Shown here: one piece after another, positions 5,718 to 44,931 of the stretch
Layout of the letters: every line of letters begins with the position of its first letter
Position numbering within the stretch: position 1 is the stretch's first letter
Assembly (NCBI GenBank): GCA_965204835.1
Contig: OZ242017.1
Span: 1,091,842 to 1,155,841, forward strand
Origin: Dehalococcoidia bacterium
Lineage (GTDB): Bacteria > Chloroflexota > Dehalococcoidia > UBA2979
Reading direction: 5' to 3'
DNA: 64,000 nucleotides
Made by a program: the position numbers and the translations under genes
Notes under the pieces: model-generated
The model's database searches: none
What the model was told of the DNA's origin: nothing
The model's input: only the letters and a program-made list of their open reading frames with translations

Positions 5718-5727
5718 TGGCGACTAC

Positions 5728-27841: not shown

Positions 27842-28291
27842 TCAGGCGTCGGCGTCGAAGGTGGCGATATCAATCACCCTGCCGGTCGCCGGACCGAACG
27901 TCCGTAGCATGCCGCGATCCGCAGTAATGACTGGGCAGCTATGGCGTAAGGCCAGGGCGACATACAGGCAGTCGTACGACGGATGCTCAAAAGCGAGCGC
28001 CAACTCAAGCGCCTGCGCGGCGAGCCCTGCGGCCGGCGTGAGTTCGGGTAACGTCCCGAGGAGCGTGTCGAGGGCCTCGCGGGCCTCGTCGCGCGTGAGG
28101 TCGCCACGCAGGTGTGCGCTCTTCCAGAGGATGTTGGTGACCTCGGGCACGTACACGTCCGGGGCCAGAAGGCTCGTGTCTCCCCGAGTGGCGCTATCGA
28201 GCAGTGCGATTGCACGGTCGGAGTCTGGCTCGGCCACTGCCCACTTCGCGCCGACCGAGGCGTCTACAACGAGCGTCTCGGCCGGGGTCAA
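27842..28291 (-). CDS. vapC: PIN-domain toxin VapC
   Basis: PIN acidic residues are present (LVVDASV...EV...D..YVALAL...ITAD). The TTG start at 28291 overlaps the vapB stop as TTGA. Confidence 0.75.
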   Translation of the reverse strand: MTPAETLVVDASVGAKWAVAEPDSDRAIALLDSATRGDTSLLAPDVYVPEVTNILWKSAHLRGDLTRDEAREALDTLLGTLPELTPAAGLAAQALELALAFEHPSYDCLYVALALRHSCPVITADRGMLRTFGPATGRVIDIATFDADA

Positions 28292-28551
28292 CGGTCGCGG
28301 TCTTCGCGGATGAGCGGCCAACTCTCGTCCAGCGGCCCTCCGTTGCGCTCCTCGATGCGCGCCCGCAGTGCGTTCATCTGCGGGATGATGTCGCGGGCGC
28401 GCTTCCGCCACTCACGCTGCTCGGCGAGCTGCTGCAGCGCTGCGCGCACCAGGGCGTTCATGCTTGTACTTTTTTCGGCTGCTTCTTCGCGGAGTGCCTC
28501 CATGACGTCGTCGGGCACGTTCCTGACAGTGATCTGGGCCATCTGGTTCAC
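28288..28551 (-). CDS. vapB: Ribbon-helix-helix antitoxin VapB (Arc/FitA-like)
   Basis: N-terminus (MAQITVRNVPDDVMEALREEAAEKSTSMNALVRAAL) is an RHH fold. It overlaps the downstream PIN gene by 4 nt. Confidence 0.75.
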   Translation of the reverse strand: MNQMAQITVRNVPDDVMEALREEAAEKSTSMNALVRAALQQLAEQREWRKRARDIIPQMNALRARIEERNGGPLDESWPLIREDRDR

Positions 28552-28567
28552 CTGGCGATCGCGAACT

Positions 28568-28596
28568 GCATGCTTCTATGGATGCATTATGCATGC
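28568..28596. promoter_or_regulatory. Nested palindromes GCATGC-N8-ATGCATtATGCATGC in the AT-rich region immediately upstream of vapB; putative VapB operator and promoter
   Basis: ATGCATTATGCAT is a 13-nt perfect palindrome flanked by two GCATGC sites. It lies 17-45 nt upstream of the vapB start. RHH antitoxins bind inverted repeats to autorepress. Confidence 0.45.
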
Positions 28597-28674
28597 TCAA
28601 CACTGACGCCAGCAATGTGACGTCGTCCTCGAGATCACCCAGGGAGAACCGAATCTGCATGCGACCCGCGCCGG

Positions 28675-29913: not shown

Positions 29914-29943
29914 CAGTGTGTCTCCATCACTGGTCGTGTGTAG

Positions 29944-30342
29944 CTATGCCTCGCCGCCGGTGGGCGAGCCGAGTTCGACGATGATCCCGTCCGGGTCGCG
30001 CACGTACGCGACGGTCTGCCCCCACGGCTTCTCGACGGGCTCCGCGAGCGGCGTCGCGCCTGCCTCGACGGCGTGCGCGTACGCGCCGGCCACGTCCTCG
30101 ACCTCGAAGCCGATCTCGAACGCCGCGGGCGGCAGCCCGGGGTCGTTCTCGCGGATCGGCGGCGCGAAGTTCGAGGCGGCCATCGAGTTGGCCGCCAGGC
30201 CGAGCGCGGTCTCGCCGGTCTCGAGTTCCGCGTAGTCGCCGCCCTCTGCCGCGAAGCGCAGGCCGACGCCGAACGCGCGCTCGTAGAAGCGCACGGACGC
30301 CTCCACGTCGCGCACGTAGACGATCGCCCAGCGGAACTGCAC
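29944..30342 (-). CDS. VOC/glyoxalase family protein
   Basis: 132 aa (WAIVYVRDVEASVRFYERAFGV...DPDGIIVEL) inserted between argD and argG. Confidence 0.65.
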   Translation of the reverse strand: MQFRWAIVYVRDVEASVRFYERAFGVGLRFAAEGGDYAELETGETALGLAANSMAASNFAPPIRENDPGLPPAAFEIGFEVEDVAGAYAHAVEAGATPLAEPVEKPWGQTVAYVRDPDGIIVELGSPTGGEA

Positions 30343-30345
30343 TGG

Positions 30346-31533
30346 CTAGCCGGTGACTTCGGCGATGGCGCCGTCGATGATGTCGACCACCTGGTCGATC
30401 TCCTCGGCGCTGACGTTGAGCGGCGGCATCATCCGCACCACGTCGGGGCGCACCGGGTTGAGCAGCGCGCCGCGCGACACGGACTCGACGACGACCTGCG
30501 GGGCGATCGGCTCGTTAAGCTCGAGGCCGATCAGCAGCCCCCGCCCGCGCACGCCGCGCACCACGCTGTGCTTCTCGCCGAGCGCGGCCAGGCGGCTCGC
30601 GGCCTGCTCACCGCGGGCGCGGACGTTGGCGAGCGTGTCGCCCTCGACCACCCGGCGCAGCACGTGGGCCGCGGCGGCGGTGGCCAGCGGCTGCCCGCCG
30701 AAGGTGGAGCCGTGGTCGCCGGGCTCGAAGACCGAAGCTGCCTCGGTGGCCATCATCGCGGCCACGGGCACGCCCCCGCCGAGCGCCTTGGCGCTGGTCA
30801 TGATGTCCGGGATGATGCCCGCCTGCTCGTGCGCCCACAGCGTGCCGGTGCGGCCCATGCCGACCTGCACCTCGTCGAGGATGAGCAGCATGCCCTGCTC
30901 GTCGCACCACTCGCGCACGGCGCGGAGGTAGTTGTCGGCGGGGACGTTGATGCCGCCCTCGCCCTGGATCGGCTCGAGCATGACGGCGGCGGTGTGCTCG
31001 TTCGTCGCGGACTGGATCGCCTCGACGTCGTCGAAGTCGACGTAGACGAAGCCCGGCACGAGCGGCTCGAAGGGCTCGCGGTAGGCGGGCGTACCGGTGG
31101 CGGCGACGGTCGCCATCGTGCGGCCGTGGAAGCCGTTCTGCGCGACGACGATCTCGTGCGCGCCGTTGCGGTTGAGGCGGCCCCACTTACGGGCGAGCTT
31201 GAGTGCGGCCTCGTTGGCCTCGGCGCCCGAGTTGGCGAAGAAGACGCGGTCCATCGCCGAGTGGTCGATGAGCAGCTGGGCCAGCTCGATCTGCGGCTCG
31301 GTGAAGAAGATGTTCGAGACGTGGATCAGCGTGCGCGCCTGCTCCGCGATCACCTCGGCGAGTTCGGGGTCGGAGTGCCCGAAGGTGCAGGAGGCGATGC
31401 CGGCAACGAAGTCGAGGTACTCCTTGCCCTCGTCGTCCCAGACGCGGGTGCCTTCGCCGCGCACGAGCGTGACCGGGACGCGCCGCGCGGCCTGCATGTA
31501 GAGCTGGGCTTCCAGGGCCTGGGTATCCGTCAC
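30346..31533 (-). CDS. argD: Acetylornithine aminotransferase
   Basis: Class III aminotransferase. The PLP lysine context (DIMTSAKALGGGVP) and N-terminal pattern match ArgD. 395 aa. Confidence 0.85.
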   Translation of the reverse strand: MTDTQALEAQLYMQAARRVPVTLVRGEGTRVWDDEGKEYLDFVAGIASCTFGHSDPELAEVIAEQARTLIHVSNIFFTEPQIELAQLLIDHSAMDRVFFANSGAEANEAALKLARKWGRLNRNGAHEIVVAQNGFHGRTMATVAATGTPAYREPFEPLVPGFVYVDFDDVEAIQSATNEHTAAVMLEPIQGEGGINVPADNYLRAVREWCDEQGMLLILDEVQVGMGRTGTLWAHEQAGIIPDIMTSAKALGGGVPVAAMMATEAASVFEPGDHGSTFGGQPLATAAAAHVLRRVVEGDTLANVRARGEQAASRLAALGEKHSVVRGVRGRGLLIGLELNEPIAPQVVVESVSRGALLNPVRPDVVRMMPPLNVSAEEIDQVVDIIDGAIAEVTG

Positions 31534-31654
31534 GCTGCTCTCCCGTACTCCGTGCGCCGTCTGTGATCCGCGTGCCGAGGCACAACGGACAGCTTACCCG
31601 TCGTGGCCGTTTGGGGCTTGGCGCGGGGCCCGCCTCGAGGGCGTCTCTTCGCGC

Positions 31655-34318
31655 CTACTGCTCGTTCTGCAGCCGCTCGATCTCGTCGAGGATGGCGCGC
31701 AGCCGGTTGAGTTCGTCCTGGGCCGCGTCTGAGGCGTCCTGCGCCTGCCGTAACAGGTTGTCGAGGTCGCCTGTTGGTATCACCACGTCGGCAGTGTCGT
31801 CGTCGCGCGGCGGTGCGGGCGTCGGCGCGACCGAGCTGTCGCTGCCTGGCAGCGAGGAGGCGCGACGGCCGAAGACCACGTCGAGCGAGCGCTGGAACGT
31901 CTGCTCCATCGCGATGTTGTTGCCGTTGGCGACGACGACGCGCTTCAGCTCCGGGATCCTCGAGCTCTCGGCCTGCAGGTAGATGGGCTCGACGAACAGG
32001 AACGAGTCGCCGATGGGGATCATGAGCAGGTTGCCGCGGATCACCTCGGAGCCCGCGCCCTCCCACAGCGTGAGCTGCGCGGAGATGCCCGGGTCCTGGT
32101 CGATGCGGGCCTCGATCTGTGCGGGGCCGAAGACGAGGTCGTCGGTCGGGAAGCGGTAGGCACGCAGCGAGCCGAGGTTCTCGCCGTCGGAGCGACCGGC
32201 GAGCCACGCGATGGTGTTCTGCTTGTTGCGCGGCGTGAACGGCATGATCAGCGAGAATTCCTCGGTCTCCTCGCCGGGGAGCTTCATGATCACGTAGTAG
32301 GGCTCGAGCGGCTGCTCCTGCTGGCGGAACTTCTCCGTGGGGATGTTCCACAGGTCCTCGCCGAGGAAGAACACGCGCGGGTCGGTGATGTGGTAGCGCA
32401 GGTACTGCTGCGCCTGGAGCTGGAACATGTCCTCCGGGTAGCGCAGGTGCGACTGGAGGAACGCCGGCATCTCGTCCCGGTCCGTGAAGAGGTCCGGGAA
32501 GATCTTCGCCCATGTCGTGGCGACCGGGTCGTTCGGGTCCATGAGGTAGAAGGTCATGTCGCCGGTCTCGGCGTCGACCACGACCTTCACGCTGTTGCGG
32601 ATGTAGTTGACGGTCCCGAGGTGCTGCGAGTACGGGAAGTCGCCGGAGACCGTGTACGCGTCCTGGATCCACAGCAGCCCGCCGTCGGCGATGACGATGT
32701 ACGGGTCGCTGTCGAGCCGCAGGAACGGCGCCACCTTCGTGATGCGGTCGCCGAGCGAGCGGTGCATCAGCAGCGTCGACTCGCCCGTGATGCGGCCGGA
32801 GATGAGCAGGTTGCGGTCTCCGAGCTGCCACGCGAGCGCGAAGCGCCGCAGCAGGTTCGAGAGCTGGATGCCCCGATCCGGCTCGTAGACCGTCTCGACG
32901 GTCGATTCGCCGTCGGGGTAGTCGAACTCGTTCTCCTTCGTCTTGACGATGATGTAGTGGTCGGTGAGCTCGCCGAAGTAGATGCGCGCGCCCTCGGCCG
33001 TGAGCGGCACATCGTCGCCGACCGGCGGGATGTCGCGCGTCCACAGCACGGGCAGGCCCTCCGAGGTGATCTCGTTGACCGGCGCCACGACGGCGCCGAA
33101 GCCGTGCGTGAACTGCAGCCGCTCCTGCGTCCACCCGGAGCCCGCGGTCTGCGAGGCGCGCCGCAGGTCCAGCTCGCGCGGGGCCAGCATCACCTGCTGC
33201 TGCTCGCCGTCGATCACATAGCGGTCAACATCTACGTCCTCGAACGTGTAGAGCGGCCGGATCGACTGGATCTGCGTGAACGTGTCGCGCGTGGGCCGCG
33301 CGTCGAGGAGGCGGATGTTGGAGAGCGTCGCCTCGTTGGCGGCGATCTCCTCCTCGGTGACCTGGGCCTCGGCGGGGAACGTCGTGACCTCGATGTCGCT
33401 CAGGCCCCACGCCAGCCGCGTCATGTCGATGTTGCGGTCGATGTAGAGCTCTTCCTTCTCGAGCTCGTTGGGGTCGACCTGGAAGGACTGCACGAACGAC
33501 GGGTAGACGAACCCGCCGACGATGCCGGCGACGACCCAGAGGCCGATGGTGAAGACCGGGATCCGCCAGCTGCCGCTCAGGAGCGAGTTGGCGATGGTCG
33601 CGAGACCCGCGAAGGCGCCGAGCGCGACCATGGCGTAGCGCGCCGGGAGGCGCGCGGTGATGTCGGTGTAGGTCGCGCCCGTCACGATCCCGAGCCGCGA
33701 TGTGGCGAGGTCGAACGCGGAGAGGTACGTCCCCACCGCGATGACCAGCAGGATCAGGCCGACGAGCACCGAGATGTGGATGCGCATGCCGCGCGGCACG
33801 TGCAGCTCGAAGCGCTGCAGCGAGTACGTCAGCGCGTACACCGAGCCGGCGCCGAGCGCCGAGACCACGAGCAGCGAGAGCACCCAGCCCTGGAAGAGGT
33901 GCAGCGCCGGCAGGTCGAACATGTAGAACGAGACGTCGCGGTTGAACGCGGGGTCGTCCACGCCGAAGTCGACGGCGTACCACCACGACAGCACCGTCTC
34001 CCACGAGCCGGCCGCGACCGCGCCGAAGATGATCGCGAGGAACAGCGTCATCGCGATCATCACCACGGAGACGACGCGCCGGATGGCGTCGGGGTCGACG
34101 TCCTCGATGAACGACTCCTCGAAGCCCTGCGGCGCGAGCCGGCGTGCGAGCCAGATGTTGAAGCCGAGCACGACGAGCGTGATCAGCGTGCCGATCACGA
34201 ACAGCATCGCGCGCGCGGTCAGGACGCGCTGGAAGTTGCTCGCGTAGTCGACCGAGTCGAACCACAGGAAGTCGACGTAGATCGACTTGGCGACGTTCGC
34301 CGCCACGAAGAGCAGCAC
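31655..34318 (-). CDS. UPF0182 family large membrane protein; N-terminus probably extends upstream of 34318
   Basis: About 890 aa with seven or more N-terminal TM helices and a conserved C-terminal region (YVIMKLPGEETEEFSLIMPFTPRNKQNTIAWLAGRSDGENLG), matching actinobacterial UPF0182 proteins. The in-frame upstream sequence (RIGGANNFRSPISLRWIGLLAAVV) matches the family N-terminus but contains no canonical start. Confidence 0.75.
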   Translation of the reverse strand: MLLFVAANVAKSIYVDFLWFDSVDYASNFQRVLTARAMLFVIGTLITLVVLGFNIWLARRLAPQGFEESFIEDVDPDAIRRVVSVVMIAMTLFLAIIFGAVAAGSWETVLSWWYAVDFGVDDPAFNRDVSFYMFDLPALHLFQGWVLSLLVVSALGAGSVYALTYSLQRFELHVPRGMRIHISVLVGLILLVIAVGTYLSAFDLATSRLGIVTGATYTDITARLPARYAMVALGAFAGLATIANSLLSGSWRIPVFTIGLWVVAGIVGGFVYPSFVQSFQVDPNELEKEELYIDRNIDMTRLAWGLSDIEVTTFPAEAQVTEEEIAANEATLSNIRLLDARPTRDTFTQIQSIRPLYTFEDVDVDRYVIDGEQQQVMLAPRELDLRRASQTAGSGWTQERLQFTHGFGAVVAPVNEITSEGLPVLWTRDIPPVGDDVPLTAEGARIYFGELTDHYIIVKTKENEFDYPDGESTVETVYEPDRGIQLSNLLRRFALAWQLGDRNLLISGRITGESTLLMHRSLGDRITKVAPFLRLDSDPYIVIADGGLLWIQDAYTVSGDFPYSQHLGTVNYIRNSVKVVVDAETGDMTFYLMDPNDPVATTWAKIFPDLFTDRDEMPAFLQSHLRYPEDMFQLQAQQYLRYHITDPRVFFLGEDLWNIPTEKFRQQEQPLEPYYVIMKLPGEETEEFSLIMPFTPRNKQNTIAWLAGRSDGENLGSLRAYRFPTDDLVFGPAQIEARIDQDPGISAQLTLWEGAGSEVIRGNLLMIPIGDSFLFVEPIYLQAESSRIPELKRVVVANGNNIAMEQTFQRSLDVVFGRRASSLPGSDSSVAPTPAPPRDDDTADVVIPTGDLDNLLRQAQDASDAAQDELNRLRAILDEIERLQNEQ

Positions 34319-34448
34319 GACGGCCGCGAGGAGTCCGATCCAGCGCAGCGAGATGGGTGAGCGGAAGTTGTTCGCCCCGCCGATCCGGAACGGCTCGTCG
34401 GGTGGCCCGAGTGGGCCGCGGTCTTCCCGGTCCTCGAAGAAGCCCAGG

Positions 34449-35234
34449 TTACACCTCGATCCGTGTGCCGAGCGCTTCGCCCGCTGCGATCCGCTCCAGT
34501 GTACGCCGCGCGCGGCCCTGCGCCACGTGCACGCGCACCTCTTCCTCGGCCGCGCGCAGGCTGGCGTCGATCTTGGGCAGCATTCCGCCCGCCAGCGTAC
34601 CTGCCTCGCGCAACGTCGATGCCTGCTCGCCGCCCAGGGTCTCGATGAGATCTCCGTCGCCGTCGAGGACGCCGTCCACGTCGGTCATGAAGACCAGCAG
34701 CCGCGCCCGCAGCGCGCGGGCGACCTCGCCGGCGACCGTGTCGGCGTTGATGTTGAGCGGCTGGCTCGGCGGCTCCAGCCCGATCGGGGCGATCACCGGG
34801 ATCGCGCCGCCCTCGAGGATCGGGTGCAGCACCGAGGCGTCGATGCCCGTGATCTCGCCGACGAAGCCGAGCCGCTCGTCGGCGCGGCGCGCCTGCACGA
34901 GCCCGCCGTCGACGCCCGAGACGCCGACCGCGCGGCCGCCGAGGCGCACGATCTCGCTCACGAGCCGCGTGTTCACGACGCCGCGCAGCACGCCGATCAC
35001 CACCTCCAGCGCCTCCTCGCTCGTCGCGCGCAGGCCGTCGACGAAGACGGCCGGGACATCGAGGCGCTCAAGCCAGTCCGTGATCATCGCGCCGCCGCCG
35101 TGGACGACGATGGGGTAGTAGCCCTCGCCACGGAGCGCGACGACGTCGACGAGCGTGGTGTCCTCGTCGCCGAGGGTGGAGCCGCCGATCTTGACGACGA
35201 TCATGCGGTCGCTGGTGATGGGTGGGTCGGTCAT
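34449..35234 (-). CDS. argB: Acetylglutamate kinase
   Basis: MIVVKIGGSTLGD...VVHGGG are amino-acid kinase family motifs. The ATG at 35234 overlaps the argJ stop as ATGA. Confidence 0.9.
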   Translation of the reverse strand: MTDPPITSDRMIVVKIGGSTLGDEDTTLVDVVALRGEGYYPIVVHGGGAMITDWLERLDVPAVFVDGLRATSEEALEVVIGVLRGVVNTRLVSEIVRLGGRAVGVSGVDGGLVQARRADERLGFVGEITGIDASVLHPILEGGAIPVIAPIGLEPPSQPLNINADTVAGEVARALRARLLVFMTDVDGVLDGDGDLIETLGGEQASTLREAGTLAGGMLPKIDASLRAAEEEVRVHVAQGRARRTLERIAAGEALGTRIEV

Positions 35235-36556
35235 GTCGTGTAGTCCGCGTTGATGCTCACGTACTCGGCGGTCAGGTCGCATCCCCACGCCGTCGCGGTC
35301 GCCTCACCGCAGGCCAGGTCGATGCGGATCGTGACCTCCTCGGTGTCCATGGCGGCGGAGATCTCCGCCTCGCTCGTCGCGGCCGGCGCGCCGCGGTCGA
35401 ACGCGACGTGCTCGCCGATCCACACGCTGGCGGCGGCAAGGTCGATCGAGGCGCCCGAGCGCCCAGCGGCCATGAGCACGCGCCCCCAGTTCGGGTCGCG
35501 GCCGGTCACCATCGTCTTCACGAGCGGCGACGAGCTGATCGTGCGAGCGCACAGCCGCGCGTCCCCGGCGCTCGCCGCGCCCTCGACCACCACCGTGATG
35601 AGCGTGTTCGCCCCCTCGCCGTCGCGCGCGAGCTGGCGCGCGAGGTCCACCGAGACCGCCTCGACGGCGCGTTCGAGGGCGTCTGCCGCGGGGTGCCCGT
35701 CGCGGACGGGCTCGCCGCCTGCCGCGCCGCTGGCGAGCAGCAGCACGGTGTCGGACGTCGAGGTGTCCATGTCCACGTCGACCATGTTGAAGGAGCGGTC
35801 GCAGACGCGGCGCAGCGTGGCCTGGAGCCACTCGCGGTCGGCGGGCGCGTCGGTGGTGAGGAAGCCGAACATCGTCGCCATGTCGGGGTGGATCATCCCC
35901 GACCCCTTGGCGACGCCGCCGACGGTGTAGGTGCGGCCGTCCACTTCGACGCGGACGGCGGCCTCCTTGGGGTGCGTGTCGGTGGTCATAATCGCGCGCG
36001 CGAACGCCTCGCCGCCCGACTCCGAGACCTCGACGGCGTCGATGCCGGCCTCGATGCGGTCCATCGGGAGGAGGCGGCCGATCACGCCTGTCGAGCCGAC
36101 GAGCACGTGCTCCGTGTCGACGCCGAGCTTCGCGGCGGCGAGCGCGGTCATGCGCAGCGCGTCCTCGACGCCCTGCGCGCCCGTCGCGACGTTCGAGCAG
36201 CCGGAGTTGGCGACGATGGCGCGCGCGACGCCACCCGCCGCCCGCTCGCGGGTGAGCCGCACCGGCTCGCCGACGACGGCGTTGCGCGTGTAGACGCCCG
36301 CGACGGTGCACGGGCGGTCGGCGGCGAGGATGCCCACGTCGAGGCGCGGCTCGGGGCCGTAGGTCTTGATGCCGGCGTAGCTGCCGCCCGCGACGAACCC
36401 CGCGGGCGCGGTCACGCCGCCCTCGATGGTCTCGATGCGCGCCTCGACGGCCTGCGGGGGGTTGGTCAAGCGTGGCTCCCGTCCGGCGACTGAGTATAGG
36501 CAGCGATGCCGCTTGTGCTCAGCCTGCCGGGATCGCCTCGGCTCAGGCCGGGGCAA
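35231..36556 (-). CDS. argJ: Bifunctional glutamate N-acetyltransferase / amino-acid acetyltransferase
   Basis: ArgJ autoproteolytic-site region (ATLRRVCDRSFNMVDVDMDTSTSDTVLLLASG). The start is either ATG 36556 or TTG 36469. Confidence 0.85.
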   Translation of the reverse strand: MPRPEPRRSRQAEHKRHRCLYSVAGREPRLTNPPQAVEARIETIEGGVTAPAGFVAGGSYAGIKTYGPEPRLDVGILAADRPCTVAGVYTRNAVVGEPVRLTRERAAGGVARAIVANSGCSNVATGAQGVEDALRMTALAAAKLGVDTEHVLVGSTGVIGRLLPMDRIEAGIDAVEVSESGGEAFARAIMTTDTHPKEAAVRVEVDGRTYTVGGVAKGSGMIHPDMATMFGFLTTDAPADREWLQATLRRVCDRSFNMVDVDMDTSTSDTVLLLASGAAGGEPVRDGHPAADALERAVEAVSVDLARQLARDGEGANTLITVVVEGAASAGDARLCARTISSSPLVKTMVTGRDPNWGRVLMAAGRSGASIDLAAASVWIGEHVAFDRGAPAATSEAEISAAMDTEEVTIRIDLACGEATATAWGCDLTAEYVSINADYTT

Positions 36557-37250
36557 GCCCCACGCGCGGGCAGTGCGCGAGCAGGGGGCAGCGCTCGCAC
36601 TCGGGGTTGCGGGCGTGGCACGTGCGGCGGCCGTGCTGGATCAGGTCGACGTGGAACGGGAGCATCTGCTCGGGCTCCAGCATCTCCTCGATCAGCTCGG
36701 CCTGGCGGTCCGGCGACGCCTTCTCGGGCGTCAGTCCCAGCCGCTTCGCCACCCGCCCGACGTGCGTGTCGACGGGCATCGCGGGGCGGCCGAGGGCGAA
36801 CATGAGCGTGACCGCCGCGCTCTTGTGGCCCACGCCCGGCAGCGAGCGCAGCCACGCCTTCGCCTCCTCGATCGGCATCGTCTCGAGGAAGTCGATGTCG
36901 AAGTCCGGGACGCGGTCGCGCACCTCGGCGAGGAGCGCCTGCAGCCGGGGCGCCTTCGTCGGCGCGAGCCCGCCCGGCCGGATCGCGTCCTCGACCGCGC
37001 TCGTCGGCGCCTCGATCACGTCCTCCCACGCGGGGAAGCGCTCGATCAGGCGGTGGAACGCCCGGCCCGAGTTGTGGTCCGAGGTGTGTTGCGAGAGCAG
37101 CGCGAGCACGAGCTCGGAGATCGCGTCGCCGTGCGGGCGCTCCGGCGGACGGCCGTACGCCTCGTCGAGGATCGCGAGCATCCCGGCGATGTCCCAGCGA
37201 TCGGACAGACCCTCGGACGAAGCGGTCGCGAGACTGCGTGTCGATGGCAT
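36543..37250 (-). CDS. Endonuclease III-like HhH-GPD base-excision glycosylase with a 4Fe-4S cluster loop
   Basis: HhH-GPD motif (LPGVGHKSAAVTLMFALGRPAMPVDTHV) and C-X6-C-X2-C-X5-C (CHARNPECERCPLLAHC). ATG at 37250. Confidence 0.75.
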   Translation of the reverse strand: MPSTRSLATASSEGLSDRWDIAGMLAILDEAYGRPPERPHGDAISELVLALLSQHTSDHNSGRAFHRLIERFPAWEDVIEAPTSAVEDAIRPGGLAPTKAPRLQALLAEVRDRVPDFDIDFLETMPIEEAKAWLRSLPGVGHKSAAVTLMFALGRPAMPVDTHVGRVAKRLGLTPEKASPDRQAELIEEMLEPEQMLPFHVDLIQHGRRTCHARNPECERCPLLAHCPRVGLAPA

Positions 37251-37293
37251 GGCGGCATCGTACGATGGGGAGCGCACGAGCGGAGGGCAGCGC

Positions 37294-38340
37294 GTGACGG
37301 CTGAGCAGATTCGCCTCACCGACCTCGCATCCTGCGGCGGCTGAGCGGGAAAGCTGGGTCTCGCGACCCTGGCGCAGGTGCTGCGCCCCCTGCATGAGGT
37401 CTTCGCTCCCGGGCAGCACCCCGAGCTGCTCGTTGGCCTCGCGCCGTCCGATGACGCCGCGGTGTTCCGCGTGAGCGACGACCTCGCCGTCATCCAGACG
37501 CTCGACTTCTTCCCGCCGGTGGTCGACGACCCCTACATCTACGGGCAGATCGCCGCGGCGAACGCCATGTCCGACGTGTACGCGATGGGCGGCGAGGTGA
37601 AGCTCGCGCTCAACATCGCGGCGTTCCCGGAGGACCTCGACCCCGAGCTGCTCGCCGAGATCGTGCGCGGCGGCGCGGACAAGGTCGCCGAGGCGGGCGG
37701 CGTCGTGGCCGGCGGCCACACGGTGATCGACGCGGAGCCGAAGTACGGGCTCTCCGTGATGGGCGTGATCCACCCCGACGCCGTGCTCACCACCGGCGGC
37801 GCGCAGCCCGGCGACGCGCTGCTGCTCACCAAGCCGCTCGGCACCGGCATCCTCATGAGCGCCGCCGGCCGCGAGGGCGCCGAGGCGGGCTTCGAGGCTG
37901 CCGTCGAGTCGATGCGCGCGCTCAACCGCCACCCGGCCCACCTCGCACGCGCCGCGGCGGCGCACGCGGTCACGGACGTGACGGGGTTCGGGCTCGCCGG
38001 CCACGCCTCCGAGGTGGCGCAGCAGAGCGGCGCGACGCTGGTCTTCGACCTCGACGCGTTGCCGCTGCTGCCGGACGCCGCCCGCTTCGCCGCCGAGGGC
38101 GTCGTGACGGGCGGCGGCAACCGCAACGTCGCGCACCTCGGCGACCGCGTGCGCATCGAGGGCGAGCCCGACCAGGCGCTCGTCGACGTGTTCTACGACC
38201 CGCAGACCTCGGGCGGCCTGCTCATCGCCGTGCCCGAGGCCGATGCCGCCGCGCTCAGCGACGCAATCGCGGGCGAGGGCGGCGGATGCTGGCGCATCGG
38301 GCACGTCGAGGAGGGCCCGCCGCTCGTGGTGGCACGGTGA
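37294..38340 (+). CDS. selD: Selenide, water dikinase (selenophosphate synthetase) encoded as a selenoprotein: in-frame UGA (Sec) at 37342-37344
   Basis: GTG at 37294 is preceded by GGAGGG at 37282-37287. It translates to VTAEQIRLTDLASCGG-U-AGKLGLATLAQVLRPLHEV..., which aligns with E. coli SelD [20 protein letters not shown], with U17 on Cys17 and K20 on K20. The rest (DDAAVF...DFFPPVVDDPY...TDVTGFGLAGH...DPQTSGGLL) is an unambiguous SelD body. The ORF track reported only the part after the UGA (37378-38340). Two small hairpins lie 10-45 nt downstream of the UGA. Confidence 0.85.
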
Positions 38341-39083
38341 GGCGGCTGCTCGGGGCGCTGCTCGCCCTGCTGGCCATCGTGCTGGCACTGGCGGCCGCGG
38401 CCTGCTTCGGCGGCGACGAGGAACCAGCGGCGCCCACCGCCACTCCGACTGCGACCTCGATGCCGGTACCGACCCCCACGCCCGTCGACCCGGCCGCGGT
38501 GGTCCACGAGTCGGCCGACCGCATGGAGGGCATCCAGCGGTTCCACTTCACGCTCGACCACGAGAACGGGGCGAGCGAGATCGTGCGCGGCATCATGATG
38601 GTGTACGCCGAAGGCGACTTCGACGGCGCGGAGCGCATGCGCGCGGAGATCGAGGGTGCGCTCGGCACGGTGAAGTTCGAGACCGCCGTCATCGTGCTAC
38701 CCGAGGGGAGCTGGCTCAAGAACCCGTTCGACCGCTCGTGGGAGGCCGAGGAGATCTCCATCGAGGAGTTCTTCGACCCGCAGAACGGCGTCGCCGCGCT
38801 CATGCGCCAGGTGACGGAGCCCACCCTCGTCGGCCGCGAGGAGTTCGGGGGCGTCGAGACGTACCGCATCGACGTGCTCGCCGACTCGGGCGACCTCGCG
38901 ATCTTCCCGACCGCCGAGCCCGGCTTCGAGGTGCGTGCGACGCTCTGGATCGGCGTGGACGACCTGCTGCTGTACCGCGTGGACGTGCTCGGCGCGATCT
39001 CGGAGGACGAGGAGTCCGACATCCTGCGACGCCTCGAGCTGAGCCGCTTCGGCGAGGACGTGGACATTGCCCCGCCGCCGTGA
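38337..39083 (+). CDS. Lipoprotein, LppX/LprG-like (putative)
   Basis: The GTG at 38337 overlaps the selD stop as GTGA. Signal peptide plus lipobox (LLALLAIVLALAAAAC) and a Pro/Thr linker. The mature domain has weak LprG-like beta-rich features. Its position directly upstream of an MFS pump mirrors the mycobacterial lprG-p55 operon. Confidence 0.5.
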   Translation: MRRLLGALLALLAIVLALAAAACFGGDEEPAAPTATPTATSMPVPTPTPVDPAAVVHESADRMEGIQRFHFTLDHENGASEIVRGIMMVYAEGDFDGAERMRAEIEGALGTVKFETAVIVLPEGSWLKNPFDRSWEAEEISIEEFFDPQNGVAALMRQVTEPTLVGREEFGGVETYRIDVLADSGDLAIFPTAEPGFEVRATLWIGVDDLLLYRVDVLGAISEDEESDILRRLELSRFGEDVDIAPPP

Positions 39084-40569
39084 TCCGGGCCACGATGAGG
39101 CCGAAGACCTCGACGCCTCCACGTCGCGCGGCAGCGCCTCGCTGCTGATCGCCGTCGCGGGCGGCGTCTTCATCGCCGCCGACGACCAGACCTCGGTGGT
39201 CACGGTGCTGCCGGCGCTCATCCCCGACATCGGCCTCGCGGTCGACGACTTCTTCCTCGCGTCGTGGGTGATCAACGGCTACCTGCTCGGCTACATCGTG
39301 GCGCTGCCGATCGTCGGCCGCATCGCCGATGCGCGCGGGCACGGCCGCGTGTACGCGGGCTCGCTCGGCGTGTTCATGCTCGGCAGCGCGCTGGTGGCCG
39401 CCGCGCCGGACTTCTGGTCCCTCGTCGTCGCGAGGGGCCTGCAGGCCGTCGGCGGCGGCGCGGTCGTGCCGGTGGCGATGGCCATCGTCGTGACGCAGAT
39501 GCCGCCCGAGCGCCGCGCGCTGGGGCTGGGTGCGATCGCCGCGGCGTCTGAGGCGGGAGCACTCGTTGGCCCGCTCTGGGGCGGCCTCATCACCGAGCTG
39601 TGGGGCTGGCGGTGGATGTTCTGGCTCAACCTGCCCATGTCGCTGCCGGTGCTCGGCGCCGTGTGGTGGCTCGCGCGCAACGAACGCGCCGAGGGTCGCA
39701 TCGACTGGCCGGGCGCGGCGCTCCTCGCTGCGGCGCTGGCCGCGCTCACCATCGCCATCGCCGACGACCCGATCGCGCCCCGCCACTGGGCGATCACGAC
39801 GCTGCTCCTCGCGGGGACGGCCGCGCTCGCGGTCGTCTTCGCGCTGCGTCAGCGCTGCGTCGAGGAGCCGATGGTGCGGCTCTCGATGTTCGCCTCGAAG
39901 CAGGTGTCGAGCGCCGCAGTGATGAGCGTGCTGGTGGGCGCGGGGCTCATCACCGCGCTGATCAGCGTGCCGCTGTTCGTGAACCTCGTGCTCGTCGAGC
40001 GACCGATCGACGGGGGCTTCACGCTGCTGCGCTTCACCGCCGCCGTGCCCGTCGGCGCGCTCGCCGGGGGGTGGGTTACGGGGCGCATCGGGCCGCGGCT
40101 GCCGGCCGCCGCCGGCGTGCTGCTCGGCGCCGCATGCTTCGCGGGGCTGCTGCCGTGGGATGAGGTGCTCCCCGAGGTGTGGCGCAGCACGCCGCTCATC
40201 GTCGGCGGCTTCGGGTTCGGGCTGCTGATCGCCCCGCTCGGCGTGGCGGTGCTCAGCCACGTGCGCGAGGAGGAGCGCGCCGTGGCCGCCTCGTGGCTCA
40301 CGCTGGCGCGGATGGGCGGGATGCTGGTGGGGACGGGCCTGCTCACCTCGCACGGCCTCGGGCGCTTCTACGCGCGGGCCGGTGCGATCGAGTTCGACTC
40401 GCCGGAGTTCGCCGAGCTGGTGACCGAGGCGCAGGTCTCGACCTTCCACGAGATCTGGGTCGTCGCCGCACTCGTGCTGGTGGTGACCGCTGCGCTAGCG
40501 TGGTGGCTCGGTGGCCGCGCCGAGCCCGGCGAGGAGGCCGCGGAGTGGTGGTCCGCGCCGACCAGGTAG
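39067..40569 (+). CDS. MFS transporter (DHA2 drug:H+ antiporter-like, about 14 TM)
   Basis: MFS motifs (ADDQTSVVTVLPALIPDIG...GRIADARGHGRV...RGLQAVGGGAVVP). The TTG start at 39067 overlaps the end of the lipoprotein gene, so the start is uncertain. Confidence 0.75.
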   Translation: MPRRRDPGHDEAEDLDASTSRGSASLLIAVAGGVFIAADDQTSVVTVLPALIPDIGLAVDDFFLASWVINGYLLGYIVALPIVGRIADARGHGRVYAGSLGVFMLGSALVAAAPDFWSLVVARGLQAVGGGAVVPVAMAIVVTQMPPERRALGLGAIAAASEAGALVGPLWGGLITELWGWRWMFWLNLPMSLPVLGAVWWLARNERAEGRIDWPGAALLAAALAALTIAIADDPIAPRHWAITTLLLAGTAALAVVFALRQRCVEEPMVRLSMFASKQVSSAAVMSVLVGAGLITALISVPLFVNLVLVERPIDGGFTLLRFTAAVPVGALAGGWVTGRIGPRLPAAAGVLLGAACFAGLLPWDEVLPEVWRSTPLIVGGFGFGLLIAPLGVAVLSHVREEERAVAASWLTLARMGGMLVGTGLLTSHGLGRFYARAGAIEFDSPEFAELVTEAQVSTFHEIWVVAALVLVVTAALAWWLGGRAEPGEEAAEWWSAPTR

Positions 40570-40594
40570 GCGCCCTCGGTCGACACACGCGAAC

Positions 40595-40616
40595 GCGCCC
40601 CGGGCAACCGGGGCGC
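40595..40616. terminator. Perfect hairpin GCGCCCCGG-GCAA-CCGGGGCGC between the convergent MFS gene and ACAD copy A
   Basis: 9-bp GC stem with a GCAA loop. A nearly identical element recurs downstream of each ACAD paralog. Confidence 0.5.
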
Positions 40617-40642
40617 GCTGCGTGGTGCGTGCGAGGGCGGGA

Positions 40643-41866
40643 CTAGCCGCGCGGCAGCGCGAGTCCTCGCGTCGCGATGATGTTGCGCTGGATCTCGTTC
40701 GAGCCGCCGAAGATCGTGTAGACGACGCTGTGCACGTAGAGCTGGGTGAACCGCGCGTCGAGCGGGGTGCGCTCGTGGGCGCGGTCCCAGATGTTCGAGT
40801 AGAGCCCGAACACCTTCATGCCGGTGTTCGCGGTGCGCTGGTTCAGCTCGGAGCCGAAGATCTTCGAGGTCGACGCCTCGTAGTTCGGGACCATCCCGCT
40901 CGCCTGGATCGAGATGATGCGGAACGAGAAGTTGAACAGCACCTCCGACTCGATCCAGCGGTCGGCGATGAGCGTGCGGGCGCGGTCGCCGCGGTCCTGC
41001 GCCCGCAGCCGGCCCTCGTCGGTGTCGAGGTAGTCGATGAGCGAGCGGAGGCGTCGCCGCGTCTCGACCGCGCCGGCGATGTTGGAGCGCTCGAAGTCGA
41101 GCAGCGTCATGCCGACGTACCAGCCGCGGTTGACCTCGCCGATGACGTTGGTGGCGGGGACGCGGACGTCCTCGAAGAACGTCTCGTTGGTGCCGTGCTC
41201 CCAGCCCATGGTGATGATGGGGCGGACGGAGATCCCGTTGTTCTCCTGGGGCATCACCATGAAGGTGATGCCGCGGTGCTTCGGGGCGTCGGGGTCGGTG
41301 CGGAACATCCCGAAGACCCAGTTGGACTTGTGGGCCGAGGAGGTCCACATCTTCTGGCCGTTGATGATGTACTCGTCGCCGTCGCGGACCGCGCGCGTCT
41401 GCAGCGAGGCGAGGTCCGACCCCGCGCCCGGCTCCGAGAACCCCTGCGCCCAGAGGATCTCGCCGCGCAGCGTCGGGGGTAGCAGCCGCTCCTTCTGCTC
41501 GTCGGTGCCGTGGATGAGCACCGTGGGGCCGAGCAGCGAGAGGCCGCCGCCGCCCACCAGCGGCGCCTCGGCCTCGGCCATCTCCATGTTGAAGATGAAC
41601 TGCTCCATGGTCGTCAGGCCGGCGCCGCCGTACTCCTGTGGCCAGTGCGGGGCGGACCAGCTGCGCGAGTCCAGCGTCGCGGCCCACTCGCGCGCCGCGG
41701 CCTGCGCCTCCTCGCTGCCGTGGACCATGTCCTGCTGCCAGTTGTCCTCGAGGGTGACGGCGCTCCAGCGCCGCTTGTCCTTGTAGTACTGCGGCAGGTT
41801 CTCGTCGATGAAGCTGCGCACGTCCTCGCGGAACGCGGCCTGCTCTGCAGTGTCTTCCCAGTCCAT
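40643..41866 (-). CDS. Acyl-CoA dehydrogenase (tandem paralog A)
   Basis: 407 aa from ATG 41866 (MDWEDTAEQAAFREDVRSF...). ACAD N/M/C domain signatures are present (GFSEPGAGSDLASLQTRAVRDGDEYIINGQKMWTS ... YEASTSKIFGSE). Confidence 0.85.
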   Translation of the reverse strand: MDWEDTAEQAAFREDVRSFIDENLPQYYKDKRRWSAVTLEDNWQQDMVHGSEEAQAAAREWAATLDSRSWSAPHWPQEYGGAGLTTMEQFIFNMEMAEAEAPLVGGGGLSLLGPTVLIHGTDEQKERLLPPTLRGEILWAQGFSEPGAGSDLASLQTRAVRDGDEYIINGQKMWTSSAHKSNWVFGMFRTDPDAPKHRGITFMVMPQENNGISVRPIITMGWEHGTNETFFEDVRVPATNVIGEVNRGWYVGMTLLDFERSNIAGAVETRRRLRSLIDYLDTDEGRLRAQDRGDRARTLIADRWIESEVLFNFSFRIISIQASGMVPNYEASTSKIFGSELNQRTANTGMKVFGLYSNIWDRAHERTPLDARFTQLYVHSVVYTIFGGSNEIQRNIIATRGLALPRG

Positions 41867-41918
41867 GCGCTGCCTCCTCGGCGTGCCGGTCACGTCTCCG
41901 GCGTGATTGCTGCGAGGG

Positions 41919-41928
41919 AGTCTAACAG
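41919..41928 (-). promoter_or_regulatory. Conserved extended -10-like motif cTGtTAGACT upstream of ACAD copy A; equivalents are upstream of copy B (about 43305) and copy C (about 44985)
   Basis: The motif on the gene strand is ACGCTG(T/C/G)TAGA(C/A)TC(C/T)C(T/G)CGCA. It occurs about 50 nt upstream of each of the three ACAD starts and resembles the actinobacterial extended -10 (TGnTAnnnT). Confidence 0.35.
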
Positions 41929-41984
41929 CGTCCCTGCTCACGGGCGTCTGGCTCGCAGGCGCCAGCCCGGCGGGCGACGCGAAC

Positions 41985-42006
41985 GCGCCCCGGTTGCCCG
42001 GGGCGC
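41985..42006. terminator. Hairpin GCGCCCCGG-TTGC-CCGGGGCGC downstream of ACAD copy B (loop inverted relative to the other two copies)
   Basis: Same 9-bp stem as at 40595 and 43661, but the loop reads TTGC instead of GCAA. Confidence 0.5.
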
Positions 42007-42031
42007 GCTGCGTGGTGCCTGCGAGGTGGGA

Positions 42032-43255
42032 CTAGCCGCGCGGCAGGGCCAGCCCTCGCGTCGCGATGATGTTGCGCTGGATCTCGTTGGAGCCGCCGAA
42101 GATCGTGAACACCACGCTGTGCACGTAGAGCTGCGTGAAGCGCGCGTCCAGCGGGGTCAACTCGTGCGCCCGGTCCCAGATGTTGGCGTACAGGCCGAAC
42201 GCCTTCATGCCGGTGTTCGCCGTGCGCTGGTCCAGCTCGGAGCCGAAGATCTTCGAGGTCGACGCCTCGTAGTTCGGGACCATCCCGCTCGACTGCATCG
42301 AGATGATGCGGAACGAGAAGTTGAACAGCACCTCGGACTCGATCCAGCGGTCGGCGATCAGCGCGCGCGTCCGTTGCGCCCGGTCCTGCGACCGCAACTG
42401 CCCGTCGTCCGTGTCGAGGTAGTCGATCAGCGACTGCAGCCGCCGACGAGTCTCGACCGCGCCCGCGATGTTGGAGCGCTCGAAGTCGAGCAGCGTCATC
42501 CCGACGTACCAGCCGCGGTTGACCTCGCCGATGACGTTGTTGGCGGGCACGTGGACGTCCTCGAAGAACGTCTCGTTGGTGCCGTGCTCCCAGCCCATGG
42601 TGGTGATGGGACGGACGGTGATGCCGTTGTTGAGCTGCGGCATGACCATGAACGTGATGCCGCGGTGCTTCGGGGCGTCGGGGTCCGTGCGGAACATCCC
42701 GAACAGCCAGTTGGACTTGTGGGCCGAGGAGGTCCACAGCTTCTGGCCGTTGATGATGTACTCGTCACCGTCGCGCACCGCGCGCGTCTGCAGCGAGGCG
42801 AGGTCTGAGCCGGCGCCCGGCTCCGAGAAGCCCTGCGACCACAGCATCTCGCCGCGCAGCGACGGCTCCAGCAGGCGCTCCTTCTGCTCGTCGGTGCCGT
42901 GGATCAGCACCGTCGGCCCGAGGAGCGAGAGGCCGCTGCCGCCGACCATGGGAGCCTCGGCCTCGGCCATCTCCATGTTGAAGATGAACTGCTCCATGGT
43001 GGTGAGCCCGCCGCCGCCGTACTCGTTCGGCCAGTGCGGCGCGACCCAGTTCCGCGAGGAGAGCACGTCGGCCCACTCCTGCGCGGCGGCCTTGGCCTCG
43101 TCGCTGCCGTGCATCATGTGGTCCTGCCAGTCATCCTCCAGGGTGACTGCGTTCCACTCCCGCTTGTCCTTGTAGTACTGCGGCAGGTTCTCCTCGATGA
43201 ACGAGCGGACGTCCTCGCGGAACGTCGCCTGCTCTGCAGTGTCTTCCCAGTCCAT
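42032..43255 (-). CDS. Acyl-CoA dehydrogenase (tandem paralog B)
   Basis: 407 aa, about 85-90% identical to copies A and C (MDWEDTAEQATFREDVRSFIEENLPQYYKDKREWNAVTLEDDW...). Confidence 0.85.
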   Translation of the reverse strand: MDWEDTAEQATFREDVRSFIEENLPQYYKDKREWNAVTLEDDWQDHMMHGSDEAKAAAQEWADVLSSRNWVAPHWPNEYGGGGLTTMEQFIFNMEMAEAEAPMVGGSGLSLLGPTVLIHGTDEQKERLLEPSLRGEMLWSQGFSEPGAGSDLASLQTRAVRDGDEYIINGQKLWTSSAHKSNWLFGMFRTDPDAPKHRGITFMVMPQLNNGITVRPITTMGWEHGTNETFFEDVHVPANNVIGEVNRGWYVGMTLLDFERSNIAGAVETRRRLQSLIDYLDTDDGQLRSQDRAQRTRALIADRWIESEVLFNFSFRIISMQSSGMVPNYEASTSKIFGSELDQRTANTGMKAFGLYANIWDRAHELTPLDARFTQLYVHSVVFTIFGGSNEIQRNIIATRGLALPRG

Positions 43256-43399
43256 GCGCTGCCTCCTCGTGGACGCGTCGCGTCCGCCGTGCGTATCTGC
43301 GAGGGAGTCTAGCAGCGTCTGTCACGCCACCGGAGCGGATCACGGGCGGGTCGCGAGGTCGCTGGCCATCGGGAGCGACTGCTGAGCTATGATCCGGTC

Positions 43400-43630
43400 A
43401 TGGCGACCACACGACTCGACATGGACGGGGCGCAAGCCCAGCTCCCGGAGCACGTCGCGCGGCTGGAGCCCGGCGATAGCATCATCCTGTGTCGCGAAGG
43501 CCGCCCCGTGGCCGAGATCCGGCCGATCGAGGAGCCCCTGGCCGAGCCTCGCCCGGTCGGGTTGGGCAAGGGTCTCGTCGAGATCCCCGACTCCTTCTTC
43601 GAGCCGCTTCCCCCGTCTGCCTTCTCGTAG
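43400..43630 (+). CDS. Orphan type II antitoxin-like protein (VapB/Phd-like; C-terminal LGxGKGxxEIPDSFFEPLP motif)
   Basis: 76 aa (MATTRLDMDGAQAQLPEHVARLEPGDSIILCREGRPVAEIRPIEE...PVGLGKGLVEIPDSFFEPLP). It resembles antitoxins whose C-terminus carries the (L)LKG...DDFDxPL motif. No cognate toxin gene follows it. Confidence 0.5.
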   Translation: MATTRLDMDGAQAQLPEHVARLEPGDSIILCREGRPVAEIRPIEEPLAEPRPVGLGKGLVEIPDSFFEPLPPSAFS

Positions 43631-43660
43631 CGATAGCGCACGGTCCACGCAGATGCAAAC

Positions 43661-43682
43661 GCGCCCCGGGCAACCGGGGCGC
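43661..43682. terminator. Hairpin GCGCCCCGG-GCAA-CCGGGGCGC downstream of ACAD copy C
   Basis: Third copy of the element, about 25 nt after the copy C stop. Confidence 0.5.
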
Positions 43683-43707
43683 GCTGCTGCGTGCGTGCGA
43701 GGAGGGA

Positions 43708-44931
43708 CTAGCTGCGAGGCAGCGCCAGTCCGCGCGTCGCGATGATGTTGCGCTGGATCTCGTTCGACCCACCGAAGATCGTGAACACCACGCTGTGGAC
43801 GTAGAGCTGCGTGAAGCGCGCGTCCAGCGGCGTGAGCTCGTGCCCGCGGTCCCAGATGTTCGCGTAGAGCCCGAACGCCTTCATGCCGGTGTTTGCCGTG
43901 CGCTGCGAGAGCTCCGAGCTGAAGATCTTCGAGGTCGACGCCTCGTAGTTCGGGACCATCCCGCCCGCCTGCATCGAGATGATGCGGAACGAGAAGTTGA
44001 ACAGCACCTCGGACTCGATCCAGCGGTCGGCGATCAGCCCGCGCGTCCGGCCTGCGCGGTCCTGCGACTTCAGCGAGCCCTCGTCCGTGTGCAGGTAGTC
44101 GATCAGCGACTGCAGCCGCCGACGCGTCTCGACCGCGCCCGCGATGTTGGAGCGCTCGAAGTCGAGCAGGGTCATGCCGACGTACCAGCCGCGGTTGACC
44201 TCGCCGATGACGTTGTTGGCGGGGACGCGCACGTCCTCGAAGAACGTCTCGTTGGTGGCGTGCTCGAAGCCCATCGAGATGATCGGGCGGACCGAGATGC
44301 CGTTGTTGGTCTGCGGCATGACCATGAAGCTGATGCCGCGGTGCTTCGGCGCGTCGGGGTCGGTGCGGAACATGCCGAACAGCCAGTTGGACTTGTGGGC
44401 CGTGGAGGTCCACATTTTCTGGCCGTTGATGATGTACTCGTCGCCGTCGCGGACGGCGCGCGTCTGCAGCGAGGCGAGGTCTGAGCCGGCGCCCGGCTCG
44501 GAGAAGCCCTGCGACCAGAGCATCTCACCGCGCAGCGTCGGCGCCAGCAGGCGCTCCTTCTGCTCGTCGGTGCCGTGGATCAGCACGGTCGGGCCCATGA
44601 GCGAGAGGCCCTGGCCGCCGACCATGGGGGCCTCGGCCTCGGCCATCTCCATGTTGAAGATGAACTGCTCCATGGTGGTGAGGCCGGCGCCGCCGTACTC
44701 CTGCGGCCAGTGCGGGGCGACCCAGTTGCGCGAGGACATGCGGTCGGACCACTCCTGCGCGGCGGCCTTCGCCTGGTCGCTGCCGTGGACCATGTCCATC
44801 TGCCAGTCATCCTCGAGGGTGACGGCGTTCCAGGCCCGCTTGTCCTTGTAGTACTGCGGCAGGTTGTCGTCGATGAAGCTGCGGACGTTCTCGCGGAATG
44901 CCGCCTGCTCTTCGGTGTCTGCCCAATCCAT
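43708..44931 (-). CDS. Acyl-CoA dehydrogenase (tandem paralog C)
   Basis: 407 aa (MDWADTEEQAAFRENVRSFIDDNLPQYYKDKRAWNAVTLEDDW...). Same family as copies A and B. Confidence 0.85.
   Translation of the reverse strand: MDWADTEEQAAFRENVRSFIDDNLPQYYKDKRAWNAVTLEDDWQMDMVHGSDQAKAAAQEWSDRMSSRNWVAPHWPQEYGGAGLTTMEQFIFNMEMAEAEAPMVGGQGLSLMGPTVLIHGTDEQKERLLAPTLRGEMLWSQGFSEPGAGSDLASLQTRAVRDGDEYIINGQKMWTSTAHKSNWLFGMFRTDPDAPKHRGISFMVMPQTNNGISVRPIISMGFEHATNETFFEDVRVPANNVIGEVNRGWYVGMTLLDFERSNIAGAVETRRRLQSLIDYLHTDEGSLKSQDRAGRTRGLIADRWIESEVLFNFSFRIISMQAGGMVPNYEASTSKIFSSELSQRTANTGMKAFGLYANIWDRGHELTPLDARFTQLYVHSVVFTIFGGSNEIQRNIIATRGLALPRS

Follow-up and report, generated by a model that had tools for sequence, protein, structure and literature searches.

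In a 64,000-nucleotide (nt) stretch of Dehalococcoidia (Chloroflexota) DNA with a G+C content of 70.7%, referred to here as the window, the gene for selenide, water dikinase (selenophosphate synthetase, selD) is directly followed by the genes for an LprG-like lipoprotein and a transporter of the major facilitator superfamily (MFS). These genes probably represent a three-gene operon of one Dehalococcoidia clade, in which an ordinary selenocysteine (Sec)-containing SelD heads an old lipid-handling module of the LprG/Rv1410 type. The comparisons described below suggest that the adjacency of selD is a lineage-specific operon arrangement and not a selenium transporter, and the pump most likely carries no selenium compound. 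The features of the locus are as follows.

36543–37250, minus strand: nth, an endonuclease III-like (HhH-GPD) gene, identified as an open reading frame (ORF) whose orthologues carry PF00730
37294–38340, plus strand: selD, selenide, water dikinase, 348 codons including one selenocysteine codon
37342–37344, plus strand: in-frame TGA of selD, selenocysteine, codon 17, within the motif SCGG-U-AGK
37345–37393, plus strand: candidate selenocysteine insertion sequence (SECIS), two adjacent hairpins 3' of the UGA, from ViennaRNA folds of the window and its relatives
38337–38340, plus strand: GTGA junction, overlap of the selD stop and the lipoprotein start
38337–39083, plus strand: LprG-like lipoprotein gene (LppX_LprAFG family), 248 residues (aa), GTG start, stop at 39081–39083
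39067–39083, plus strand: overlap of the lipoprotein and MFS genes, 17 nt
39067–40569, plus strand: Rv1410/P55-like DHA2 MFS transporter gene, 500 aa, TTG start
39184–39186, 39550–39552 and 40309–40311, plus strand: codons for the key MFS residues D40, E162 and R415, respectively

The coordinates, the three reading frames and both gene overlaps (GTGA at 38337–38340; TTG 39067 against the stop at 39081–39083) are as the initial annotation of this DNA had given them. The selD frame opens with GTG 37294, about 43 nt from the start of the divergently oriented nth gene, and closes with TGA 38338–38340. In the MFS frame, TTG 39067 is the earliest start codon after a stop; it is preceded by a GAGGA Shine-Dalgarno-like motif, situated approximately 8 nt upstream. 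In all three frames, the G+C content at third codon positions (GC3) is 0.92–0.97, which is the range typical of the real genes in this window. Two other start codons were considered and rejected. For the lipoprotein, ATG 38286 was set aside, as such upstream starts are present in some relatives only; GTG 38337 is preferred because the NTGA start is universal and yields a proper signal peptide. For the MFS protein, a start at GTG 39196 would remove the first transmembrane helix (TM1) with its conserved Asp40. Because the genes leave no intergenic space and no terminator- or promoter-like site was detected between them in what was a weak scan, selD, the lipoprotein gene and the MFS gene are probably co-transcribed and translationally coupled. 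The scan of positions 36400–41000 for promoters and terminators, which returned no sites, used a sigma-70 consensus only and is uninformative for the phylum of the host.

The lipoprotein scores 50.4 bits on PF07161 (gathering cut-off of 24), with positions 1–192 of the 192-position model covered, and the same family is present in 26 of 26 homologues found. Its N-terminus, MRRLLGALLALLAIVLALAAAA-C23, has the form of a lipoprotein signal, with an n-region of MRR followed by a hydrophobic core and, at position 23, a lipobox Cys residue (codon 38403–38405). This Cys23 is invariant in 15 homologues, and no other Cys residue is conserved among them. A profile built from these 15 sequences matches the structures of Mycobacterium tuberculosis LprG, LprF and LppX at 1.4e-7 (LprG) to 2e-6. 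An AlphaFold2 model of the lipoprotein, which like that of the transporter was built on a shallow alignment of 15 sequences, has a mean confidence (pLDDT) of 84.5. The nine best fold matches of this model in the PDB are all LprG, LprF or LppX (E of 8e-13 to 4e-10, target TM-score of 0.72–0.81), and the wider LolA/LolB/RseB superfamily ranks only after them. The resemblance to LprG that had been proposed for the product of 38337–39083 is thus borne out in the predicted structure, the top matches being M. tuberculosis LprG (3mh8, 4zra and 3mha; E of approximately 1e-12, target TM-score of 0.76–0.81). A scan against NCBIfam gave only a sub-threshold SCO4651 match and was uninformative. Of the three proteins of the operon, the lipoprotein is by far the fastest evolving.

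The MFS protein scores 136.7 bits on Pfam MFS_1. Its best match by sequence in the PDB is 8pnl_A, the M. hassiacum transporter MHAS2168, at 4.8e-48, followed by EfpA at 3e-30. Its AlphaFold2 model (pLDDT of 80) likewise has 8pnl_A as the best fold match, with an E of 2e-19, a TM-score of 0.78–0.81 and 31% identity. Rv1410 and MHAS2168 have a very hydrophobic cavity, which is closed by an ion lock between a Glu in TM5 and an Arg in TM11 (Remm et al. 2023, PMC10576003). This lock, E157/R426 in MHAS2168 and E147/R417 in Rv1410, is essential, and 46 other characterised MFS transporters lack it (PMC10576003). A TM1 Asp residue (D22 in M. tuberculosis, D35 in MHAS2168) has R118, Q121 and N184 as partners, and mutagenesis has shown that D35, R118, Q121, N184, E157 and R426 are needed in Rv1410/MHAS2168 (PMC10576003). 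In a HMMER alignment to MHAS2168, the corresponding residues of the window protein are D40, R123, Q126, N188, E162 and R415, of which E162 and R415 align to the two ion-lock positions. These six residues do not vary among 15 homologues of 57–89% identity, and the same alignment contains no invariant Cys residue. In the mycobacterial transporters, TM11 and TM12 also continue on the periplasmic side as helical extensions of 31–38 residues (PMC10576003). This feature may be present in part in the window protein: the model contains a 37-residue TM12 helix (446–482) and a short helix (431–438) after TM11, but the TM11–TM12 linker is about 16 residues shorter than that of MHAS2168, and the pLDDT in this region is only 67–78.

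The sequence scores also bear on a different assignment, under which the MFS protein would be a conventional DHA2 pump for the efflux of drugs or xenobiotics, the role originally described for P55; the lipoprotein would be accessory to it and selD an unrelated upstream neighbour. DHA2/EmrB-type efflux models are indeed the top NCBIfam matches, although the best of them (162.8 bits) lies under its curated cut-off of 230.2, and EfpA, EmrB, QacA and NorC are further strong fold matches. However, the Rv1410 homologue is the best match by both sequence and fold, with a wide margin in sequence, and the Glu–Arg ion lock is present. Moreover, an obligatory partner with an LprG-type lipid-binding fold has been kept over distant lineages. 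The drug phenotypes of Rv1410 are now attributed to the transport of envelope lipids (PMC10576003, PMC6519032). We therefore give the drug-efflux assignment very little chance of being correct.

Because the family score, the predicted fold, the key residues and the gene order agree, the identification of the lipoprotein and the MFS protein as a real lprG/p55 (Rv1410)-like pair, first made in the initial annotation, is well supported. The lprG-rv1410c (P55) genes of M. tuberculosis and MHAS2167/MHAS2168 of M. hassiacum have the same order, a lipoprotein gene followed by a DHA2 MFS gene, and are likewise tightly joined. The shared LprG fold of the lipoprotein is accompanied by a sequence identity to LprG of just 17–19%. 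Unlike the Dehalococcoidia operon, the M. tuberculosis locus presumably has no selD at its front. A second difference concerns the host: Dehalococcoidia have no mycomembrane, unlike mycobacteria, so the pair cannot, as such, serve to deliver triacylglycerides or lipoarabinomannan to an outer membrane.

The first gene of the operon encodes an ordinary SelD. With the TGA read as Cys, the protein scores 368.2 bits on TIGR00476 over its full length (cut-off of 125) and 308 bits on NF002098 (cut-off of 299), and both the AIRS (PF00586) and AIRS_C (PF02769) domains are present. The TGA codon is taken here to correspond to the catalytic Cys17 of Escherichia coli SelD and the Lys residue of the motif to Lys20. 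Sec-containing forms of SelD are known from several bacteria and archaea and from mammals, as SPS2. Relative to such proteins (TIGR00476), the window SelD shows the same replacement of the catalytic Cys by Sec in the glycine-rich loop near the N-terminus, with the conserved Lys after it; nothing about the protein is unusual, and its operon partners alone are. Gene callers shorten such selD genes to 320–330 aa, with a start that lies past the TGA.

Directly 3' of the UGA, two hairpins are predicted that look like a bacterial SECIS. Hairpin 1 (GGGUC-n4-GACCC) spans 37356–37369 and hairpin 2 (GGCGCAG-GUG-CUGCGCC) spans 37371–37387, so that the conserved hairpins start 14 nt past the first base of the UGA. 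Few substitutions are found in them among relatives, and pairing is preserved as G–U in L008 and L024 (L numbers denote loci fetched for comparison, as described below). An Rfam scan of the whole window gave no match, and hence no curated SECIS or riboswitch. A scan of the window for tRNA genes found none, and hence no nearby tRNA-Sec, and no selA, selB, yedE or similar domains were present among the approximately 40 window ORFs that were scanned.

To follow the arrangement in relatives, 111 loci were fetched with the lipoprotein, the MFS protein and SelD as probes. The window shares the order selD–lipoprotein–MFS with 37 of these loci, which all belong to one Dehalococcoidia clade and are not all independent; related genomes thus keep selD beside the pair, as the initial annotation had asked. 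In the loci reached with the lipoprotein probe (L001–L021, all from Dehalococcoidia/Chloroflexota metagenome-assembled genomes), nth points one way and the trio the other in 21 of 21 cases, and nth adjoins selD in every one of them (tblastn). The trio is also found in L102–L106, reached through SelD at 67–69% identity, in L107 and L109–L111, reached through the MFS protein at 61–64% identity, and in the metagenome loci L022–L024, L026, L056, L063 and L064. Across the trio loci, identity to the window proteins is 67–99% for SelD, 60–96% for the MFS protein and 43–92% for the lipoprotein. Among the selD N-termini examined, the TGA codon is kept in L001–L021, L023, L024, L026 and L102–L106, and only L022 differs, with TGC.

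Four-nucleotide NTGA overlaps are the commonest type of operon junction, so the overlap between selD and the lipoprotein gene is not special by itself. This junction has the form NTGA (GTGA, ATGA or TTGA) in all selD-bearing relatives fetched, with TAGTG in L006, and the overlap persists while the start codon of the lipoprotein varies between GTG, ATG and TTG. At the second junction, the 17-nt overlap and the TTG start are kept in L001–L021, with the exception of L007, which has an ATG start and a 26-nt overlap. In more distant members of the clade, L107 and L027, short gaps between the lipoprotein and MFS genes replace the overlap, and in L109–L111 about 450 nt are inserted there. This insertion, at 5546–6000 in L109 and also present in L110 and L111, carries a G-rich palindromic repeat (for example at 5809–5856). 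A second copy of the repeat in L109, 96% identical over 48 nt, is located just past the MFS gene, in the region 7500–7650. The repeats that flank the MFS gene in these three loci look like an element of the repetitive extragenic palindrome or miniature inverted-repeat transposable element (REP/MITE) kind.

The surroundings of the trio vary to different degrees. The downstream flank differs by sublineage and contains three acyl-CoA dehydrogenase genes, Cpn60 or RusA. On the upstream side, the block UPF0182–argB–argJ–nth is as well conserved within the clade as the trio, apart from genes inserted between nth and selD in two groups of loci. In L003–L005, these are an HTH_3 and Gp49 pair (HigB/HigA-like toxin–antitoxin) on the minus strand at 8099–8759. 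In L102–L106, an AHSA1/SRPBCC gene and a gene for an ArsR-type (HTH_20/HTH_5) regulator are found at 5105–5889, on the same strand as selD and directly 5' of it; with the trio, they may make up an operon of five genes that includes a metalloregulator. Overall, there is good evidence that the trio is a stable operon in this clade. Because all trio loci are confined to one clade, in which the UPF0182–argB–argJ–nth block is equally conserved, they look like the record of a single evolutionary event and not like repeated confirmation of a linkage.

Outside the clade, the pair is found without selD. Here, metagenome contigs were scanned with an MFS alignment, and all loci were then searched with a lipoprotein hidden Markov model and, for selD, with phmmer. 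Relatives with an MFS identity of at least about 55% have the order selD–lipoprotein–MFS. In the tier of 31–49% MFS identity by tblastn (approximately 170–440 bits), the lipoprotein gene is immediately upstream of the MFS gene and selD is absent from 14 of 14 loci. This count takes in only loci whose upstream sequence extends for at least 700 nt, and it includes the nearest outgroup, L029. The contig of P0026, the most distant lipoprotein homologue found (31% identical), also contains the pair without selD, which brings the count to 15 of 15. The lipoprotein gene is directly 5' of the MFS gene in essentially all relatives of at least about 170 bits for which upstream sequence is available, and no lipoprotein partner accompanies MFS proteins that score under about 135 bits. 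Because these distant pairs keep the gene order without selD, the pair is regarded as an old unit to which selD was added once.

A member of the clade itself shows the same separation. In L027, whose MFS protein is 60% identical to that of the window, the order argB–argJ–GNAT–nth leads directly into lipoprotein–MFS, nth and the lipoprotein gene being only about 75 nt apart (5180–5260), with no selD at the locus. Both the lipoprotein and the MFS genes are intact, and the transporter's key residues are all kept. In a neighbour-joining tree of MFS proteins, computed without support values, L027 is nested among selD-bearing loci, beside L022 (Ga0194132_10012532). The selD of L022 has a Cys codon (TGC, 2361–2363) in place of the TGA, with the operon kept. 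The simplest reading is that in the L027/L022 sublineage a Sec-to-Cys change was followed by the loss of selD, while the pair was retained in place, and the two loci look like successive stages by which the selenocysteine trait was lost from this site. As L027 and the 15 distant pairs all keep the pair without selD, the pair does not need an adjacent selD.

These loci bear on whether the pair could import or export a selenium compound (selenite, selenide, an organoselenium compound or a selenium-modified lipid), and so feed SelD or detoxify an excess. The initial annotation had raised a coupling of this kind between selenium metabolism and transport. The logic is that of YedE/YedF, a candidate selenium transporter and a redox protein identified by analysis of selD gene neighbourhoods (Lin et al. 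2015, PMC5322559), where a membrane protein is likewise encoded beside selD. In favour of such a role, membership in the operon and the overlap with selD are kept clade-wide, the gene for the ArsR-type metalloregulator in L102–L106 lies directly 5' of selD, and no dedicated transporter such as YedE was present among the window ORFs scanned, which leaves the role locally unfilled. However, YedE co-occurs with selD over many phyla, with statistical significance, and has a conserved Cys residue (PMC5322559), whereas the lipoprotein–MFS pair is found beside selD in a single clade, is widespread without it and has no conserved thiol. None of the 15 assessable pairs outside the clade is adjacent to selD, so adjacency was not encountered in any independent lineage, and within the clade L027 has an intact pair without it. 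Beyond the lipobox, neither protein has a conserved Cys residue that could bind selenium, nor a CxxC motif; the transporter keeps the residues of the Rv1410 lipid transporter, and its partner has the LprG fold. In addition, the linkage counts as a single event, the ORFs scanned over the 64 kb include no other selenium gene, and published comparative-genomics surveys of selenium utilisation and selD neighbourhoods (PMC5322559, PMC5029168) list no MFS or lipoprotein partners. Selenium transport thus finds no support in the comparison and is very improbable. Operon drift, which the initial annotation had named as the other option, is closer to the evidence, but the word understates how long the arrangement has been stable within the clade.

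A regulatory connection is a separate matter. Under selenium shortage, translation of selD could stop early at the UGA, and translational coupling or Rho-type polarity could then lower the expression of the lipoprotein and MFS genes. Consistent with this idea, the conserved UGA and its downstream hairpins lie approximately 1 kb 5' of a conserved stop/start overlap, neither intergenic space nor any terminator-like or sigma-70-like promoter site was detected between the genes, and insertions in relatives gather outside the selD/lipoprotein junction, with none within it. Against it, the argument is purely mechanistic, and there is no sign that any such polarity is adaptive. The retention of the operon in L022 with Cys in place of Sec indicates that gating at the UGA is not required, and promoters internal to selD are possible, given that the promoter scan used the sigma-70 consensus only. 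Selenium-dependent polarity, although mechanistically plausible, is therefore considered unlikely. Taken more broadly, the proposal that the LprG/Rv1410 module of this clade is under selenium control through the selD UGA, or handles a hydrophobic compound that bears selenium and derives from selenophosphate, is quite improbable. Were gating at the UGA to operate, the export of envelope lipids in this clade would become responsive to selenium.

The preferred explanation, an ordinary Sec-SelD at the head of an LprG/Rv1410-type module, has two parts that would be functionally separate. The first is a selenophosphate synthetase that would itself be a selenoprotein, with its UGA at codon 17 and the hairpins just downstream. 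The second is a two-gene module of old standing, a homologue of mycobacterial LprG/Rv1410. By analogy with the mycobacterial system, the proton-coupled, 14-helix MFS protein, with D40/R123 and E162/R415, would extract a hydrophobic and probably acylated lipid from the cytoplasmic membrane, and this lipid would then be handed to the hydrophobic pocket of the lipoprotein, anchored on the outer face of the membrane. In the ancestor of the clade, selD would have come to sit directly 5' of this module, to which it has since been joined by the stop/start overlap. The history of the locus would thus comprise a single gain of the selD linkage and, in one lineage, a later loss of selD from the locus.

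Several points weigh against this explanation. The flanking UPF0182–argB–argJ–nth block is as syntenic as the trio, and conservation of gene order therefore says little either way. The retention of NTGA despite changes of the start codon, and the survival of the trio through large divergence of its proteins, are compatible with selection for co-expression. The loss of selD in L027 is read from a neighbour-joining tree without bootstrapping, and selD could instead have moved elsewhere in that genome. The selD neighbourhoods covered are those of relatives of at least 67% identity, from the best 120 selD matches, and separate selD–lprG linkages may exist in other phyla. Finally, the lipid cargo is assigned by homology to a system from hosts with a mycomembrane.

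Other features of the window lie outside the operon. The MFS gene is immediately followed, on the opposite strand, by three tandem acyl-CoA dehydrogenase paralogues (40643–44931, minus strand); two of them are 407 aa long and the first ORF is 432 aa from its earliest start codon, and relatives hold two to three copies. Three paralogues of family III CoA-transferase occur close together at 1824–3032 (plus strand), 3042–4343 (plus strand) and 5728–7086 (minus strand). On the nth side, positions 25889–36556 contain an arginine-biosynthesis cluster, syntenic clade-wide, with argH, argG, a glyoxalase gene, argD, argB and argJ, which is interrupted by the gene for the UPF0182 membrane protein (887 aa, 31655–34318, minus strand). 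An ORF of 1001 codons at 19678–22683 (plus strand) has no Pfam match and a low GC3 of 0.79, compared with approximately 0.95 in its neighbours; the ORF could be spurious, or the actual gene could be encoded in a different frame or on the opposite strand.

No paper was found that links selD with LprG or with an MFS transporter, in keeping with the view of the initial annotation that the arrangement had not been described. It nonetheless amounts to a gene order specific to one clade rather than to a system of a new kind; each of its parts belongs to a known family. As it stands, the selD junction offers no grounds for inferring a new selenium transporter; it is a stable marker of the clade and, at most, a possible site of selenium-dependent operon polarity. 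The broader meaning lies in the pair. Discussions of the LprG/Rv1410 system usually treat it as an adaptation of the mycobacterial envelope and as a virulence factor. True modules of this type, with the ion-lock and proton-coupling residues intact, are widespread in Dehalococcoidia, which lack a mycomembrane. These pairs provide diverse sequences for structure–function work, and they suggest that the module has an older and more general job, the transfer of hydrophobic lipids out of the membrane and onto a lipoprotein at the surface.

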